This document shows positions 7,724 to 30,071 of a DNA stretch of 64,000 nt, piece after piece. Each line of letters opens with the position of its first letter. The stretch's first letter is position 1. The translations under genes were made by a program, and so were the position numbers. Source of the stretch: Candidatus Sysuiplasma jiujiangense (GTDB lineage: Archaea; Thermoplasmatota; Thermoplasmata; Sysuiplasmatales; Sysuiplasmataceae); assembly GCA_019721075.1 (NCBI GenBank), contig JAHEAD010000009.1, positions 29,888 through 93,887 of the forward strand, given 5' to 3'. Below the pieces are notes generated by a model. The model was not told the origin of the DNA, ran no database searches, and saw only the letters and a list, made by a program, of their open reading frames with translations.

Positions 7724-8453
7724 CAGAATGAAGCAATGATATCCGCGCCTTAAATGCCTTTTTTGTTCAAGTCTCATATCGTTATATGTCTAATAGTTAG
7801 TAAATTATGCCATACATATACAAACAATAATTAAACACTAATATGCTATATTCGGCTAAATTGCAAAGCGTGCGATCAAATGGAGAAGGATCGACCTATC
7901 CATCCATGCAGAACTGATTATGCTCAAGCCTGAGTAAATAGCGATAAGAGAAATTGTTATCCGCGTAGACAGAAAATTACAAAACTCAAATAACGGGTCT
8001 CATGAACACTCAATTTTGATCTGAAGAGAACTTGAAAGGGATCTTCATAAACATGTCAGTTGAAATTCAGCATTGATTATGAATATTATTATTGGATTAT
8101 GCTCGTCTCATCAAATTATATGTTAAACATATAATAGCTCTGACTTCCTGGCCCAATATCTGAATTTATTCCCTGTAATACACTATCAAGCTAAATAATA
8201 ATAGGTATACACTGTATTGGATAAATTAATATTTGTCGATAGTTATTTTCACTGTACATCCATTTCCGTAAAGTCCTGTCAAGGCATTATACGGGGGATA
8301 TTCACAGAGAGCGGATCCAAAACCTGTTGTTTCCGCAATATCCGGCCCGATTGCCTGATCCGGTTTTCAGTGGATCGATGCATAGTGTGTCGGTTAATGC
8401 GCAATATCAGGGACTGTGGCGCCTGGAGAGGAATAAGACAATCCACGATCCGT

Positions 8454-8493
8454 ACATTCACGTAAATGTCGGTGAACCGATATTTACGTGAAT
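8454..8493. repeat. 13-bp perfect inverted repeat CATTCACGTAAAT / ATTTACGTGAATG around a 14-bp near-palindromic spacer, inside the AT-rich region downstream of the truncated serine recombinase
   Basis: Seen directly; candidate recombinase crossover or binding site. Confidence 0.5.
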
Positions 8494-8776
8494 GCGCAAT
8501 AATGTTCTTCAATTTCTTTTGTGCTCCACAAGATACCGCTGGAAATGCACGGAGCGGCGCCGCACGGATTTTAACATTGTGTATCGCGAAAGCAAATTTA
8601 TTCATTCATGTAATGGCACAACTGCAGGGGCACAACCGCCGTTTCACACATTTCAACATCAAGATGAATGGATAAATGATATGAGCAATTAGCATAGATC
8701 GAATATCGTGTCATTCACAGTTTGTCACGTCGCATGCTCTCAATGACCGTGATTTATGCGCTGCGTCATGCAATCG

Positions 8777-9658
8777 TCAGGCCGAGGCACATACACCGAA
8801 CTCGCCATTTACAAGCTTTTGAATCTGCATAATACGGCAGCTGTCGCCGCGACTCCTAAGTTGCCTGAGTCTCTGGGCCGCATTCCACTTTTCCTGATCT
8901 ACTATAGGTGTGTGTTTTCCTTTCCAGTAGAACAGGCTCCACCTGTGATATCCGGCGTAAAGCGGATTTGTCAGCACGTTGAGGACAGTCTGCCTCGTCC
9001 ACTCTTTCAAATTTTTTGTCTTAATGTCTTTCATGTTCATGCCTGTCGCTATGTCCTGGAGGCTATGCCCTTTCAGATATTCATCGTAAATCCGCTTCAC
9101 CACCATAGCTTCGCGATCCTCCACCTTCAGCCCGCCTTCCTCATAGCGGTAACCATATGGATGATTGAAGCCAAGAATACCGTTTCCCTCTTTAGCCTTC
9201 TGAAGCATTCCCATTTTCACTCTCTCGGCTATCATACCACGCTCAAACTCAGCCACACTGCCTAGCATATTAAAAATAAGTTTGCCTGCAGGAGTCGTTG
9301 TATCAAAGGGTTCGGTCGCACTCTTGAAATACACTCCGCTCTCATCCATTTCATGGACCAGGTTAGACAGATCCCTCATATTCCTGGAGAGCCTGTCCAG
9401 CTTGTAAACAAGTATCAGATCAAAATTCTTCTTTCTGAGATCCTCTCTCAACTTCAAAAAGGCGGGTCTGTTCAAATTGCCCCCGGAGAATCCGGCATCT
9501 TCGTAAATTTCGGAGAGCTCCCACCCCTGACTGACTATGTACGCCTTGAGCCTGTCCCGCTGGGCAGCAATGCTGTAACCCTCCTCGGCCTGTTCAGTGG
9601 TTGAAACCCTGAGATATATCGCTACCCGCATGTGCATCCGACGATTGTCAGACATCAA
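8777..9658 (-). pseudogene. Large serine recombinase (resolvase/invertase catalytic domain + start of recombinase domain), truncated; the Zn-ribbon/coiled-coil C-terminal half is absent
   Basis: Catalytic serine in MRVAIYLRVSTTEQ, then AGFSG, YKLDRLSRN and the first ~130 aa of the recombinase domain (GFNHPYGYRY...NPLYAGYHRW), then a stop. Downstream is ~1 kb of AT-rich DNA without ORFs. Confidence 0.6.
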
Positions 9659-9707
9659 CCTTCATGAATATAATTCTTTCAAATCAGCGAGGAGCAGCAT
9701 CAACACG

Positions 9708-10193
9708 ATGTTATTGGGACTTTCTAAATACATGAATGACCCTTTTTCAGTCGTGAACGAAGAAATAAAGAAAAAAATCGAACATTTTGGCGGCCTGCTG
9801 GATGAACAGACGGCAAAACTGCTGATCGATTACGAGAATGGAAAGTTTGACGAGGAGAGAAAGGAAAAATTGCGCGCAAAAATTTACAAATCACTCAACT
9901 CAAGGATCGAAGCGCTTGTACTGGAGGTACAAATGCCTCGGGAATACAGGAAAAAGAATGAAGAGACGGGAAAAATACTTTCCATAAAGGTATTTGTAAA
10001 TCAGAGAGAGGCATCGCTTACATTCTGGGACTCCCAGATAGAAAAAATCGATATCGGAAAATTTTCAGAGGGAAAGAAGATTGTCATGGTGAACTGCCAT
10101 CTAAGCGAGGGAAAATTCGGGCTACAGATTAACACAGGTAAGGGCGGGGTAATTTCAACAGAAACAGGTGAGTTGATATTCAGCGCATATTAA
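9708..10193 (+). CDS. Hypothetical OB-fold nucleic-acid-binding (RPA-like) protein
   Basis: The C-terminal segment ILSIKVFVNQREASLTFWDSQIEKIDIGKFSEGKKIVMVNCHLSEGKFGLQINTGKGGVI resembles ssDNA-binding OB folds (..TG.i.vtlWd...). The start was chosen at an internal Met to avoid overlap with the recombinase. Confidence 0.4.
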   Translation: MLLGLSKYMNDPFSVVNEEIKKKIEHFGGLLDEQTAKLLIDYENGKFDEERKEKLRAKIYKSLNSRIEALVLEVQMPREYRKKNEETGKILSIKVFVNQREASLTFWDSQIEKIDIGKFSEGKKIVMVNCHLSEGKFGLQINTGKGGVISTETGELIFSAY

Positions 10194-10379
10194 TTTAGCA
10201 CGCATATGTATTAGATAAAATTAATTATGTTCGACAAGAACTTCGGTGGCAATACGAAATCTGATTACGGATTAACGAGCAGGGATTGTGCATGCCTGCG
10301 AAACAACCTGACAGCTCTGATTCTTCAATCCTCACCCTGGCGGGATTGTCCGCATACAGAGATTTTCACACATATATAG

Positions 10380-10520
10380 ATATATGTCTATAAATCAAAT
10401 ATTAAAATGCATATAATTCAATATAACATTAACTACAATTTAATATTAATATAAAAGTTTTAAATTAACATAAAATATTAAATATAAATTAAATATATAT
10501 TGCCATATAACAGTGATTTA
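10380..10520. repeat. Extreme AT-rich low-complexity block with reiterated AATATTAAA/TAAATATA units, upstream of the GH15 gene
   Basis: Base composition and short degenerate repeats seen directly. Confidence 0.5.
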
Positions 10521-10636
10521 ACATATCCCCACAGTCACATAGGGAACGGAAATTCAGTCTCCGGTAGTGACAGATGTGCTGAAGCAGGTAATTCTCATCT
10601 CTGCAAACAGCATTAATAAGAGCGTGTTTTTACCGA

Positions 10637-17585: not shown

Positions 17586-17686
17586 TGGCGCCGAGGGGGA
17601 GATTTGAACTCCCGAGGTGCAGTGCACCAGTGGCTTTCACGACTGGGTCTCGAGGCCACCGCTTTACCGGGCTGAGCTACCTCGGC
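17586..17686 (-). tRNA. tRNA-Ser(CGA) with a predicted 13-nt intron at the canonical 37/38 position, a long variable arm, and encoded CCA
   Basis: Hand fold: acceptor GCCGAGG/CCTCGGC, discriminator G, T-arm GGGAG-TTCAAAT-CTCCC, anticodon stem GTGGC/GCCAC, anticodon loop CTCGAGA, variable-arm hairpin GGTGC-ACT-GCACC, 3' CCA. Confidence 0.7.
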
Positions 17687-26739: not shown

Positions 26740-26814
26740 CCCAGCTTGGCCAAAGGCGCAAGGCTTAGGACCTTGTCCAGCAGTGGTTCGCCGGTTCAAA
26801 TCCGGCCCCCTGCA
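26730..26814 (+). tRNA. tRNA-Leu(UAG), class II with long variable arm; CCA not encoded
   Basis: Hand fold: acceptor GCAGGGG/CCCCTGC, discriminator A, anticodon stem CAAGG/CCTTG, loop CTTAGGA, 14-nt variable arm, T-arm GCCGG-TTCAAAT-CCGGC. Confidence 0.85.
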
Positions 26815-27748
26815 CTGGGACGATTGTTCGACCTGTTTAGAAGCGGTTAATCCCTCACTGATATTTGGATCATCATTGGCTTTTTTGAACTGATGAACGA
26901 ACTGGAGTTGCATCAGGATACCGGTTCTACGTAATCATGATGCAAGGAAGAGTGTGACGGAGAGATTAAAGGCTCTTCAGGACAGTCGAATGACGACAGT
27001 CGAACTCAAGATGCCCGTCATTGACGGAATACGCACAAAGGATGTGAACAAAGTGGCACCGCTTAAGGGTTCATGGCGACATCATCGATCGCAAAACCGC
27101 TCTTCCTCGAAGGACTGGTGAAGCTGCCCGGTGCAAAGCTGACATTCGGCGGCGCGGTCAGCAAGGCAGGGCTGCGGAGGTTCGTGATCTCGATATGGTC
27201 GACCGTTGAATTGAAGAACTGCCCCGAGGATACGTTGCATTATCGTAGCGTTCGCAGGCTTGTAGAAGAAGCAGTTGATGGCACATTCACCAGCTACTCC
27301 AGCGTAACGCACGGCAGCAGGGATTAGTTTCAGATAGCACTGAGATACGGCCAAAAAACGAGTCCAGTGCTCGTGCCTGTGTATCAGTCGTATGCTCTCG
27401 AAATCATTGAACTTGATGTCACAACCTGAAAGCAGAGCCTGTGCTATCTGTCCCTGTTGATCAATACTCCTGATCTTCTCCGGACAGCTTACCGATGGTT
27501 CCGATTGCCCTGGAGGTATCCGGGTCCATCGTTGACAGGCACTCTTAGATGAAAACCGCGAGCATCATCAGCAGTTCTTTGAATGCGCGCAAATAGCGTT
27601 TAGTGAGATTTCAACTATCACAACAGAACAACGCATTTTATCTTCCTTCCTCACCATTACCTGCGCGATCGGTTTTGCGACGGATTCACGGGCGCATCAC
27701 GAAGAGATGTGCCTGGTTTCGGCTCAAGCGCAACTGAAAGCAGTTAAA

Positions 27749-27774
27749 TATAGGTATGTAAATACTTACTACTA
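27749..27774. promoter_or_regulatory. Perfect 26-bp palindrome AATACTTACTACTAGTAGTAAGTATT ~50 bp upstream of the RHH-fusion gene; candidate RHH operator or centromere-like site
   Basis: Verified base by base as its own reverse complement. Confidence 0.6.
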
Positions 27775-27824
27775 GTAGTAAGTATTAAGTAATTAGCTAT
27801 CACTGATCATTACCGGCGATTTCC

Positions 27825-28346
27825 GTGAATGAAAAGGTAAGCATATCCCTTGATGAAAATATAATCAAACTCATAGATGCCGAAAGGGGAGATGTACCCA
27901 GAAGCAGGTACATAGAGAACCTGCTCAAGACTGCCGGCTCGCTTTTTGAGGCTCTGTGGATATTTTCAGACGAATTTGAAAGTGTTACAAAAATGGAGAG
28001 ATGGCTCGCAGCTCACGCTTCGCAGCCACTGGGGAGACCGCTGCACAAGCATGAAGGGTACCTCTCCGTTACGGATAATGCACTGCGCTTTTATAACGAT
28101 AAAATGGATCTTCTGTTTATTATCGAAAAGCGTTCAATCCTGAATATGAGCGTGAGTTACGATGAGCAGTTCAAAAGATTCAGAGACTCGCGCGGACTCA
28201 TACCGCCGCTCAAGCTGGAGCTCGATAACAGGATTGTGTATCTCTTCACCAAGACCATAGGCAGGAAACGGCTGGGAGGGGGGTGGATGTTCAGAGGAGA
28301 GAATGAAGCTCTGGAAATGTGGTTTAAGGGCTTTCCGCAGCGCTGA
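27825..28346 (+). CDS. Ribbon-helix-helix (CopG/Arc-like) DNA-binding domain fused to a ~130-aa uncharacterised C-terminal domain
   Basis: N-terminal beta-strand then two helices: VSISLDENIIKLIDAE...RSRYIENLLK. The C-terminal part has no recognised motif. Confidence 0.55.
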   Translation: MNEKVSISLDENIIKLIDAERGDVPRSRYIENLLKTAGSLFEALWIFSDEFESVTKMERWLAAHASQPLGRPLHKHEGYLSVTDNALRFYNDKMDLLFIIEKRSILNMSVSYDEQFKRFRDSRGLIPPLKLELDNRIVYLFTKTIGRKRLGGGWMFRGENEALEMWFKGFPQR

Positions 28347-28685
28347 ACTGTTCGGTTCTGCCGCGGCGGAGTTATTACGCTGCAATGAAGAGTACATACT
28401 GATCGGCAAAGGAACAAGACCGGCCCATAAGTCGTCAGCTCGTCAGCGCCACCGCAACATTTGTGCTGCCTGGCAACGGCGCAGTGAGAGGCTCACACAC
28501 TGTCTATTGGAAAAACGGCAAATTCATCCATGCGTCAGAATGCCACCTGCACCTGTCAGGGCAACAGCAGACAGGTTGTCGATTTCACAGACAGCATATT
28601 CAGGTGCTGAATGAGATCAAACCGGTTTGCTCCCTGCCTGCTTAGCGGGGATAGGGTTTCGCCCTACCCGGATTCAATACCTGAT

Positions 28686-29450
28686 TTACTGGAAATTGAA
28701 ATATGGACCGCCGATTGTGAAGAGCGAGGCCTGCATGAATCCGGATTCCTGCTGGGGGGGCGTCAGCGTGACGTCTGCTTCCTGCTGCACATTTCCCATT
28801 GAAAGGATATCGTAACGGAGTTCCTCCGCTATGTCCGAACTGAAGTACTGCGTAATCTGGTCGTTTATGTGCCTGCAGACGGAGAGTATTATCTTGGATA
28901 TTCCCTCCTGGACTATTCTGAAACCGTCCTCCAGCGTGATTTCATCCGAAAGCTCGGTGAGTTTATTGTTGTCTATGACAACAATCGCATCCGAGATGGA
29001 TTTCAGTTCAGCAATTGTCTTCTCGCACTGCGACCTGGACTCCTCGACAAACGGTCTTATACCAATCGAGACAACAGTGATATCCATTTCCTTTGCCGCC
29101 CTTGCCACGACAGGCGCAACACGTGAGCCGAAGGTTCCACCGAGGCCGGTTACAACAAATATGATACCTGCGTTGACTATCTTTGCCTTTATTGCCTCAA
29201 GGTACAGCTCTTCGACAGCGTCAATATCCTCCGGCCTGATCAGGAGCGCAGAACTGCAGGCGACAGAGCAGAGTCTGTCCTGATTGTCATTGACTGCGAC
29301 TGTCTCAATATCGGGGTGTTCCCAGTACAGCCGTTCAGCAATGTTCGTTCCGGCGCCGCCGCAGCCGACGACGCTCACTCTAGGTTCTCCGATTCCGCCC
29401 ACAATGGATACATCCATCCCTTCCTGGGTGAAGTCACCGAATTCAGACAT
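28686..29450 (-). CDS. FtsZ/tubulin-superfamily GTPase, minimal form (GTPase core through the T7 region, no C-terminal domain); FtsZl1- or TubZ-like
   Basis: T1 loop VVGCGGAGTNIAERL (cf. FtsZ VIGVGGGGNNAVNRM), degenerate tubulin signature VTGLGGTFGSRVAPVVARAAKE (cf. GMGGGTGTGAAPVIA), VVSIGIRPFVEESRSQCEKTIAELKSISDAIVVIDNNKL (cf. VVTKPFSFEGRKR...LIVIPNDKL), and a T7-like INDQ. It ends ~60 aa later at 254 aa. Confidence 0.8.
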   Translation of the reverse strand: MSEFGDFTQEGMDVSIVGGIGEPRVSVVGCGGAGTNIAERLYWEHPDIETVAVNDNQDRLCSVACSSALLIRPEDIDAVEELYLEAIKAKIVNAGIIFVVTGLGGTFGSRVAPVVARAAKEMDITVVSIGIRPFVEESRSQCEKTIAELKSISDAIVVIDNNKLTELSDEITLEDGFRIVQEGISKIILSVCRHINDQITQYFSSDIAEELRYDILSMGNVQQEADVTLTPPQQESGFMQASLFTIGGPYFNFQ

Positions 29451-29562
29451 TTGTCTCCTCCTTGATCTTGCGGATATGCTCTGGAGAAACCGTTTCCCTG
29501 TTCAGTAACTGTTCGTGCATCCCATCCCTTCTGACAGCCGCCAAACCTTTCCATGTCCACTA

Positions 29563-29964
29563 CTAGTGCTCGCGGTCCACTTGCACCAGTCTTTCCCTGG
29601 AGTCGCATATGGAATCAATGGTTTTGTCGAGCCTGCTGTCCTTATTTATGGTGTGGTTCTTCAGAATGAAGTATGCAGCCTCATTCTCATCCACGAAGTA
29701 CCCTCCTCTCACCATCTCTTGGAGGACATGCATGACTGCAGGCGCGGCAACAATCTTGATCACTCTTCTGTTCTCAGGCGCCTCGTTCGCAGTGCCTGCG
29801 ACGCTACCATCTTCTTCGAAGATAAAGCGCCTGATCGCCTCTCGAGCTAAATGAGATCTGCTCGCAAATTCCGTGTGCGATTCAAGGAATTTGTCGATTG
29901 TCTTTATCTCATTGTCGTCGAGACGAAGAGAAATCCTGTTGTCCACCATTGTGCCCTTCTCCAT
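29563..29964 (-). CDS. Ribbon-helix-helix (CopG-like) DNA-binding protein with a ~70-aa C-terminal extension, immediately upstream of the FtsZ-like gene
   Basis: RISLRLDDNEIKTIDKFLE...SRSHLAREAIRRFI RHH pattern; 112-nt gap to the FtsZ-like gene on the same strand. Confidence 0.6.
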   Translation of the reverse strand: MEKGTMVDNRISLRLDDNEIKTIDKFLESHTEFASRSHLAREAIRRFIFEEDGSVAGTANEAPENRRVIKIVAAPAVMHVLQEMVRGGYFVDENEAAYFILKNHTINKDSRLDKTIDSICDSRERLVQVDREH

Positions 29965-30010
29965 CGGATATTCGCAGGGATGACATAACCTTCAATTTAT
30001 ATTTAATACT

Positions 30011-30040
30011 TTTGTCATGCGTCGTACGAAGTATGACAAA
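30011..30040. promoter_or_regulatory. Extended imperfect palindrome TTTGTCAT-GCGTCGTACGAAGT-ATGACAAA upstream of the RHH/FtsZ-like operon (just beyond a TATA-like TTAAATATAAA on the minus strand)
   Basis: 9-bp perfect arms flanking a CGTACG-centred core. It sits in the intergenic region between the ECF S-component 3' end and the RHH gene start. Confidence 0.45.
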
Positions 30041-30071
30041 CAGACCGAAAACGGAGAACACAAATTCCGAA

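Follow-up and report, generated by a model that had tools for sequence, protein, structure and literature searches.

A decayed accessory islet with relics of an MCM-clade ATPase gene beside tRNA-Leu in Candidatus Sysuiplasma jiujiangense

The 3′ ends of tRNA genes are the commonest target of integrated elements in archaea, whose described cargo includes ribbon-helix-helix (RHH) and winged helix-turn-helix (wHTH) proteins, and the mobile elements of archaea typically have MCM helicases, or AAA+ ATPases related to these, as their replication proteins (PMC6563490). We analysed a 64-kb stretch of the genome of Candidatus Sysuiplasma jiujiangense, an uncultivated member of the Thermoplasmata (contig JAHEAD010000009.1, positions 29,888 to 93,887; here called the window and numbered from its first nucleotide), in which a tRNA-Leu(UAG) gene is followed by about 1 kb that holds no convincing open reading frame (ORF). 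A first-pass annotation of the window had suggested that this gap and the genes after it, as far as position 30071, might be a degraded insertion at the 3′ end of the tRNA gene. The word 'degraded' was apt: the gap kilobase is a pseudogene graveyard, in which the wreckage of foreign genes, including relics of an MCM-clade AAA+ ATPase gene, lies in a small variable slot.

The islet in this slot resembles the integrated elements found at archaeal tRNA genes (PMC6563490) in its position at a tRNA 3′ end, its small size, its cargo of a replication-like MCM-type AAA+ ATPase and of RHH and wHTH regulators, and its patchy occurrence among relatives. It differs from them in having neither an integrase nor an attachment-site (att) repeat, in that its ATPase gene is a pseudogene, and in holding a fragment of a Hint-domain surface protein, which is atypical as mobile cargo. 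It is therefore at best a remnant of an integrated element. The islet also recalls the 'dark matter islands' of archaea (PMC4158269), in that narrowly distributed, fast-evolving, mostly unannotated genes and debris lie in a conserved neighbourhood; it differs in being tiny (1.9 kb) and mostly dead, with one surviving gene. Decayed islets at tRNA genes are well known, and the window adds a new and well-resolved example that changes no general view. It does account for an unusual gene-free kilobase in an archaeal genome that is otherwise compact.

Syntenic loci were collected from Thermoplasmata, seven independent ones through the contigs of relatives of the FtsZ-like protein encoded beyond the gap, and an eighth through a relative of the 173-amino-acid (aa) protein encoded within the islet. 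All eight share one order of genes, namely an RHH protein (126-133 aa), an FtsZ-like protein (243-255 aa), the variable slot, tRNA-Leu(UAG) and a PF01877 RNA-binding protein. Beyond the PF01877 gene most loci continue with a NAD-kinase-like gene and then with DUF6015 and phosphoglycerate mutase genes. An energy-coupling factor (ECF) CbiQ-ABC-S operon stands beside the RHH gene, and is absent in L009 and L016. This order is kept down to 50% identity of the FtsZ-like protein and 38% identity of the PF01877 protein to their counterparts in the window. When the window was compared by blastn and tblastx with loci L001, L003 and L005, homology ended exactly at 26814/5 and returned at about 28685, the stop codon of the FtsZ-like gene. 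The island therefore comprises 26815-28685, about 1.87 kb. Its edge at the 3′ end of the tRNA and the empty sites in relatives are the boundaries expected of a tRNA-targeting integrative element.

The contents of the slot vary from locus to locus. It is empty (about 300 bp) in L003 and L012; it holds genes for a DNA methyltransferase and a GNAT acetyltransferase in L001, for a wHTH protein and a CopZ-like protein with four small ORFs in L005, for an FMN-binding protein with five small ORFs in L009, and for an FMN-binding protein and a homologue of the 173-aa protein in L016. In an all-against-all tblastx comparison, the cargo found more than once consisted of the gene for the 173-aa protein, which has an RHH-like and a PH-like domain and is called RHH-PH below (window, L007, L016, L018 and L021), the FMN-binding gene (L009 and L016) and one methyltransferase similarity (L001 and L021); nothing else was common to the slots. 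Overall, the slot is a hotspot for recombination, and its content is mosaic.

These comparisons shorten the insertion that had been proposed. A variable, insertion-type segment does lie 3′ of the tRNA, at 26815-28685, and the part from 28686 to 30071 is core. It had been pointed out at first pass that orthologous genes at the same place with conserved flanks would indicate a core locus; examined in the eight loci, this applies to 28686-30071, where the RHH and FtsZ-like pair has the same place and the same flanks in every relative. The island stops at about 28685, and with its boundary set the conserved pair need not be taken for mobile DNA.

Inspection of the gap itself bore out much of the first description. 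ARAGORN and Rfam agree that the tRNA ends at 26814, and the six-frame ORF list contains only short, mutually overlapping ORFs in 26815-27824, among them the weak 84- and 90-aa ORFs and the peptide of 44-56 aa that had been listed, together with a few of 42-44 aa (Table 1). No other run of the window that lacks ORFs of 100 aa or more is as long as 26914-27824 (911 bp), the runner-up being 501 bp. Searches of the gap returned no Rfam family at E≤1 and no PHROG family, and the best Pfam match to its ORF fragments (E=0.017) was well under the curated cut-offs. The genes placed 3′ of the gap (RHH-like, FtsZ-like, a second RHH, and the ECF S-component) had also been located correctly.

The nature of the gap was revealed by a sister lineage, L007 (JGI 3300017831), which is 89-93% identical to the window in nucleotide sequence and has an FtsZ-like protein 99% identical to that of the window. 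L007 contains the same island with 1.77 kb of extra sequence (L007 12286-14059). A query made by joining the L007 island ORFs to an ORF rebuilt across the junction retrieved two intact proteins. The first, P0071, has 352 aa and matches the PF00493 MCM P-loop profile with E=3.8e-14 (52.8 bits, cut-off 23.3). The second, P0072, has 655 aa, with CarboxypepD_reg domains, then a poly-Gly linker and after it a segment that begins 'CVLYG...'; we read it from its sequence as a surface protein whose C-terminus is a putative Hint-like autoprocessing domain.

Relics of both genes were detected in the window by tblastn. Positions 26981-27052 correspond to residues 74-97 of P0071, in the wHTH domain (54% identity over 24 aa, E=0.002), and positions 27085-27189 to residues 176-210, the Walker A region (85.7% over 35 aa, E=2e-14). 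The peptide of 44-56 aa noted earlier is the wHTH piece, and the N-terminus of the 84-aa ORF is the Walker A piece. About 200 nt have been lost between the codons for residues 97 and 176, everything past residue 210 is deleted, and within the Walker A region the window reads SSIAKP where P0071 has PPSTAKS. An intact ORF with Walker A, Walker B and arginine finger is therefore not what the window retains. The window fragment alone falls below significance for PF00493, and the reconstructed ORF gives E=0.11. To judge by the length of family members, the ATPase gene may have had its 5′ end, now degraded, in 26815-26980. On the opposite strand, a relic of a P0072-like gene partly overlaps the ATPase relic and represents residues 580-599; L007 retains residues 576-653 with 91% identity. 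More of this surface-protein gene may survive as debris at 27237-27750, the sole hint of the origin of that segment being a faint match in L007 to P0072 residues 482-516 (37%, with in-frame stops, E=0.01).

Comparison of the two islands accounts for the truncations. The alignment blocks of window and L007 overlap by exactly 8 nt in blastn, and direct reading of the sequences showed the overlap to be GTTCGTGA, which occurs at both ends of the extra L007 segment and once in the window. The P0071 match in L007 spans residues 171-350 with one frameshift and two in-frame stops (tblastn). The homologies to P0071 and P0072 run unbroken across both L007 junctions and are cut at the window junction; L007 is therefore the older state, and the window arose from it by microhomology deletion. 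The loss of about 200 nt from the ATPase gene is common to window and L007, and the gene was therefore dead before the lineages split. This gives a clean, datable case of islet decay in uncultivated Thermoplasmata, with gene inactivation first and microhomology deletion after. The deleted allele is also present in three samples, L024 (GCA_019721015.1), L025 and L026, the first of which is 99.7% identical to the window over 17.4 kb. As an alternative, the 1.77-kb L007 segment was considered as a transposon, and this was rejected: its ends have no terminal inverted repeats by eye, and its ORFs have no transposase match.

A separate observation concerns the Hint-like domain. It is the sole part shared between L007 12175-12585 and L110 2490-2866 (81% nucleotide identity). 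P0072 is the product of an intact surface-protein gene on L110, and its N-terminal 570 residues and the genes downstream of it are unrelated to the L007 island. This suggests that a Hint-like C-terminal cassette has been swapped between surface-protein genes.

The gap is also set apart by its divergence from L007. The segment 26815-27179 has an identity of 0.74 with two 1-nt indels, and 27188-27750 an identity of 0.83 with indels of 1, 1, 11 and 1 nt. Identity at codon position 3 is 0.84-0.92, without indels, in the NAD-kinase-like, PF01877, 173-aa, FtsZ-like and ECF-S genes, and tRNA-Leu is identical (1.00, no indels). The gap thus changes at or above the synonymous rate, and is therefore drifting debris.

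The 173-aa RHH-PH gene is the only intact gene of the island, and it is well conserved in L007 (identity 0.96, no indels). Its protein has 34 homologues, all from Thermoplasmata or Thermoplasmatota where an organism is named. The N-terminal RHH assignment is tentative: a MazE-type RHH model of NCBIfam matches weakly (E=2.7e-4, 21 bits where the cut-off is 65), and DUF6364 was the only Pfam match, also weak (E=0.17). In the AlphaFold2 model a low-confidence N-terminal segment is followed by helices at 11-21 and 26-36. The C-terminal part of the protein has a PH-like fold, a seven-stranded beta-sandwich capped by a C-terminal helix. Upstream of the gene, 39 nt from its start, lies a perfect 26-nt palindrome, AATACTTACTACTAGTAGTAAGTATT (27761-27786), as would suit a protein that binds DNA as a dimer. 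The 3′ half of the palindrome overlaps an A/T-rich box, AAGTATTAA (27780-27788). This region is 100% conserved in L007, and the core CTACTAGTAG with AAGTATTAA recurs at the same distance upstream of the homologues in L016, L018 and L021, where the surrounding DNA is unrelated, so that it is conserved in five contexts. From sequence, the palindrome is a putative operator overlapping the promoter, and the RHH-PH gene would be autorepressed.

The homologues of this gene occur in accessory surroundings. In L016 one lies in the same slot, about 180 bp after tRNA-Leu, and is 85% identical to the window copy, though the flanking core proteins are 45% and 67% identical. In L021-23 a homologue belongs to a run that starts directly after tRNA-Val and contains small ORFs, an insertion sequence (IS) element and a methyltransferase gene, and in L018-20 one lies in an accessory region with helicase, PadR, TetR and VapBC genes. 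The RHH-PH gene acts like mobile cargo; a scan of viral contigs with the RHH-PH alignment gave no match. As an observation in its own right, the 12-mer CCCATACTATAT is present twice in tandem, 3 nt apart, directly after tRNA-Val at L021 5243-5268. The 16.5 kb examined contained no longer tRNA repeat, and the L021 island runs off the locus.

The ATPase represented by the relics belongs to a large family. An exhaustive HMMER search at E≤1e-3 gave 1,104 cluster representatives, mostly of 300-335 aa, and these short wHTH and MCM-clade ATPases have no curated family of their own. PF00493 matches 34 of the 35 aligned members, and a profile of the family searched against solved structures (PDB) finds MCM AAA+ domains best (E=1e-19). 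Relatives were located in eighty metagenome loci and on two IMG/VR viral contigs; scans of genome contigs with P0071 or with the NAD-kinase-like protein and of viral contigs with P0071 alone gave nothing. As in the MCM proteins of archaeal mobile elements (PMC6563490), the intact homologues of the relic carry an MCM-type AAA+ P-loop (PF00493) in variable accessory contexts with integrases nearby. They differ in being only about 320-350 aa long, and in having an N-terminal wHTH in place of the MCM OB-fold and zinc domain; they cover P-loop profile positions 125-180 of 224, and a helicase or replication role would be assigned to them by analogy.

The scan for neighbours of the ATPase gene covered 32 loci and took in 138 ORFs, each 170 aa or longer and no more than 5 kb away. 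Phage_integrase was the commonest Pfam family (5 of the 138); PriX, IstB and MT-A70 also occurred, the remainder being single host-type families, and neighbours were almost never homologous between loci. A mobile-element origin of the ATPase is likely. An origin in a defence system was rejected, as PADLOC gave no match for the ATPase, RHH-PH, FtsZ-like or 133-aa RHH proteins.

We think it probable, on balance, that a small cryptic integrative element came in at the 3′ end of tRNA-Leu and that neither its recombinase nor its att repeat persisted; its ATPase gene decayed, a microhomology deletion later compacted the remains, and the RHH-PH cassette survived. Foreign DNA would first have come in at the tRNA 3′ flank, most likely carried by such an element, whose replication-type gene would have been the wHTH and MCM-clade AAA+ ATPase, starting beside the tRNA. 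This gene was inactivated before window and L007 separated, as the shared loss shows. In the window lineage, the ATPase pseudogene then lost its 3′ 60% in the 1.77-kb deletion between the two GTTCGTGA copies; a gene for a 246-aa membrane protein and most of the Hint-domain fragment went with it, and the remains were fused into the stretch of about 0.95 kb that now drifts neutrally. Any integrase and att repeat would have been lost as well. The one functional unit that survives is a self-contained cassette, a regulator gene encoding RHH-like and PH-like domains together with the palindrome that is its putative operator and overlaps its promoter. The inactivation and the deletion are shown by the comparison with L007, whereas site-specific integration and the loss of integrase and att repeat are what we infer.

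Several observations weigh against an integrative element. The composition of the island is not foreign (GC 0.489, against 0.509 ± 0.038 for 500-bp windows). Neither the window island nor the L007 island nor any other filled slot has an ORF or fragment that matches Phage_integrase or another recombinase, and the 3′ end of the tRNA recurs as a direct repeat in none of the loci. This agrees with the first-pass annotation, which had seen neither an integrase nor a repeated tRNA 3′ end; the 22-nt 3′ end is single in the window at up to 3 mismatches, and the search for att-like repeats that had been recommended gave the same answer. In blastn-short searches, the tRNA matched the window island only in chance stretches of 7-8 nt, and the tRNA with 25 nt more matched each of seven slots only in chance stretches of 7-12 nt. 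A split integrase of the SSV type lying over the tRNA was likewise rejected: the ORFs that cross the tRNA (57 aa on the plus strand, 105 aa on the minus strand) have no family match, and the tRNA is not repeated. A tRNA lies near the ATPase gene in only 3 of 83 loci, and at these three (L049, L062 and L092) there is no integrase, the neighbours being a methyltransferase, an EVE-domain protein, an IS transposase and a tRNA-splicing endonuclease. Most neighbours of the ATPase gene carry no mobile-element annotation, and the sole intact close homologue (L027) sits on a 2.9-kb contig with neither tRNA nor integrase. With so few tRNA-linked loci and mostly unannotated neighbours, the mobile-element status of the ATPase is statistical. 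The islet may moreover be a mosaic of several events rather than one element, because its cargo consists partly of ordinary accessory genes (the surface-protein fragment, the FMN-binding protein, CopZ).

The L027 contig (Logan SRR28401814_62266) offers two further observations. A 37-aa ORF upstream of the P0071 gene (207-320, plus strand) has two Cys pairs, a zinc ribbon by eye, and downstream of the gene, on the opposite strand, lie ORFs of 138 and 141 aa that have no annotation.

A flexible islet could also exist with no integrative element at all, if the gap between the convergent tRNA-Leu and FtsZ-like genes gained and lost DNA by illegitimate or microhomology recombination and the ATPase were an accessory gene. 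The heterogeneous, partly metabolic or regulatory cargo and the unremarkable GC content speak for this; so does the finding that the only traceable rearrangement is a deletion at microhomologies. It is opposed by the findings that the left boundary coincides to the base with the 3′ end of the tRNA, a classic target of archaeal integrases (PMC6563490), in all comparisons, that the gene abutting the tRNA comes from an MCM-clade family whose commonest identifiable neighbour is a tyrosine integrase, and that a relative of RHH-PH is found directly after another tRNA. We regard it as a minority possibility, which stays alive because integrase and att are absent in all eight loci.

A bolder extension of the integrative-element reading has two parts. 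The RHH-PH gene with its palindrome would be a self-contained cassette that lands repeatedly in tRNA-flanking islets (tRNA-Leu in the window and L016, tRNA-Val in L021-23) without a recombinase of its own, and the short wHTH and MCM-clade ATPases would be the replication or initiator proteins of an undescribed class of tiny archaeal integrative elements. Taken jointly, the two claims are speculative, and we consider them rather unlikely.

It is very unlikely that the gap is functional non-coding DNA, whether a non-coding RNA, a replication origin or a long regulatory leader of the RHH-PH gene. The RHH-PH homologues of L018 and L021 do also have 640-760 bp without called genes upstream, and the gap does end, on its 3′ side, with the conserved palindrome; the upstream regions of the homologues, however, share only the operator/promoter of about 25 nt, and the spacing between tRNA and gene start in L016 is just the 180 bp or so given above. 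Divergence at or above that of synonymous sites, with small indels, and a 1.77-kb presence/absence polymorphism in the middle of the gap also argue against function, as does the recognisable sequence, which is mostly debris of protein genes. The lack of any Rfam match is in keeping with this, and known RNAs (SRP RNA, RNase P RNA, an intron, a riboswitch) were rejected when Rfam in E-value mode found only the tRNA over 20-36 kb.

That the short ORFs of the gap are real small-protein genes is hardly credible. The 84-aa ORF is called as a gene in two public assemblies, L024 and L025; it is, however, a chimera, whose first 38 residues come from the ATPase, in its Walker A region, and whose remainder, past the deletion junction, reads the Hint relic in antisense; its frame is broken in L007 by a 1-nt indel. 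A likely mis-annotation, in which two pseudogene scraps pass for one gene, is thus corrected. The 55-aa ORF shows about 56% protein identity (by alignment count) at about 74% nucleotide identity, with no sign of purifying selection, and has no significant Pfam match, its best being the E=0.017 match cited above.

The RHH and FtsZ-like genes at the far side of the slot form a pair of a different kind. The pair is syntenic in every relative, even where the slot is empty, and is therefore a vertically inherited core locus and no insertion. The FtsZ-like protein matches NCBIfam ftsZ with E=2e-26 (equivalog, 93 bits against a cut-off of 295), and Foldseek aligns it with FtsZ GTPase domains (E=2e-14), its best structural matches all being FtsZ. 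It has no FtsZ_C domain, and consists of the FtsZ N-terminal GTPase domain and helix H7 alone, with a model that is confident for residues 21-200. The 12 closest family members lack 12 residues of the T3 loop as well as the FtsZ C-terminal domain, and their tubulin signature is GLGGTFGS in place of the FtsZ motif GGGTGTG. Close relatives in the protein database number only about a dozen, and about 14 relatives exist among 5.8 billion proteins. The protein may be a lineage-specific FtsZ derivative, perhaps GTPase-dead. Its partner, the 133-aa RHH protein, matches RHH_1 with E=0.035 and CdrS with E=0.0057, both below the cut-offs.

The arrangement recalls the cdrS-ftsZ2 locus of Euryarchaeota (PMC7439475), in which a small RHH gene likewise lies directly upstream of an FtsZ homologue and in the same orientation, and like it the pair is conserved in relatives. 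It differs in that the RHH protein has 133 aa, where the CdrS model has about 60, and scores 16.6 bits against a cut-off of 100, and in that the FtsZ homologue lacks the C-terminal domain and the T3-loop segment and has a degenerate tubulin signature. The layout is thus that of cdrS-ftsZ2, and its members are neither a CdrS orthologue nor a full-length FtsZ2. The reading of 26815-30071 as one plasmid-like element with a TubR/TubZ-type partition module is scarcely conceivable: an RHH protein beside a tubulin-family protein does look superficially like a type III partition cassette, and there is a weak PHROG match to PhuZ (E=8e-4), but the structural resemblance is to FtsZ and not to TubZ or PhuZ, the locus is chromosomal and syntenic, and the identity of the pair to L007 (0.97-1.0) is above that of the neighbouring genes. 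Both the FtsZ N-domain-only proteins paired with an RHH gene and the short MCM-like ATPases may merit separate study.

Table 1. Features of the tRNA-Leu islet and its flanks, in window coordinates
Feature	Position	Strand	Basis or remark
tRNA-Leu(UAG), anticodon TAG	26730-26814/5	+	ARAGORN; Rfam RF00005, 52.8 bits; left boundary of variable slot
Unassigned decayed spacer between tRNA and first recognisable ATPase relic	26815-26980	.	No ORF, Pfam or Rfam match
55-aa ORF	26954-27121	+	
Pseudogene relics of wHTH and MCM-clade AAA+ ATPase	26981-27189	+	tblastn of P0071
84-aa ORF	27073-27327	+	
90-aa ORF	27082-27354	-	
Hint-like domain relic of P0072-like surface protein	27177-27236	-	P0072 residues 580-599; 85% over 20 aa, E=2e-7 (tblastn)
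Deletion junction, single copy of GTTCGTGA	27180-27187	.	8-mer at both ends of L007 extra segment
Remaining decayed sequence	27237-27750	.	L007 identity 0.83; indels of 1, 1, 11 and 1 nt
Putative operator/promoter of RHH-PH gene	27761-27788	.	Palindrome and A/T-rich box
RHH-PH gene, 173 aa, N-terminal RHH-like and C-terminal PH-like domain; sole intact island gene	27825-28346	+	GTG start
Spacer between convergent genes, holding right boundary of variable slot	28347-28685	.	L007 identity 0.86; seven indels of 1-9 nt
FtsZ N-terminal-domain-only protein, 254 aa; core, outside island	28686-29450	-	PF00091, E=7e-17; syntenic in all relatives
RHH protein, 133 aa; core, outside island	29563-29964	-	Always directly upstream of FtsZ-like gene
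ECF S-component	from 30072		

Two observations were made elsewhere in the window. At 7778-10636 there is a stretch of low GC content, with 0.33-0.38 in 500-bp windows where the window as a whole averages 0.51. Its flanking genes, to judge their translations by eye, are an RFC-large-subunit-like one and a glucoamylase-like one. The stretch contains, at 8777-9658 on the minus strand, a gene for a 293-aa serine recombinase (Resolvase, E=7e-46; Recombinase, E=5e-23), and is a separate and better-marked candidate mobile island. Rfam in gathering mode over the whole window added one further tRNA, at 17589-17686 on the minus strand; it is 98 nt long, scores 45 bits, above the gathering score, was not found by ARAGORN, and probably contains an intron.

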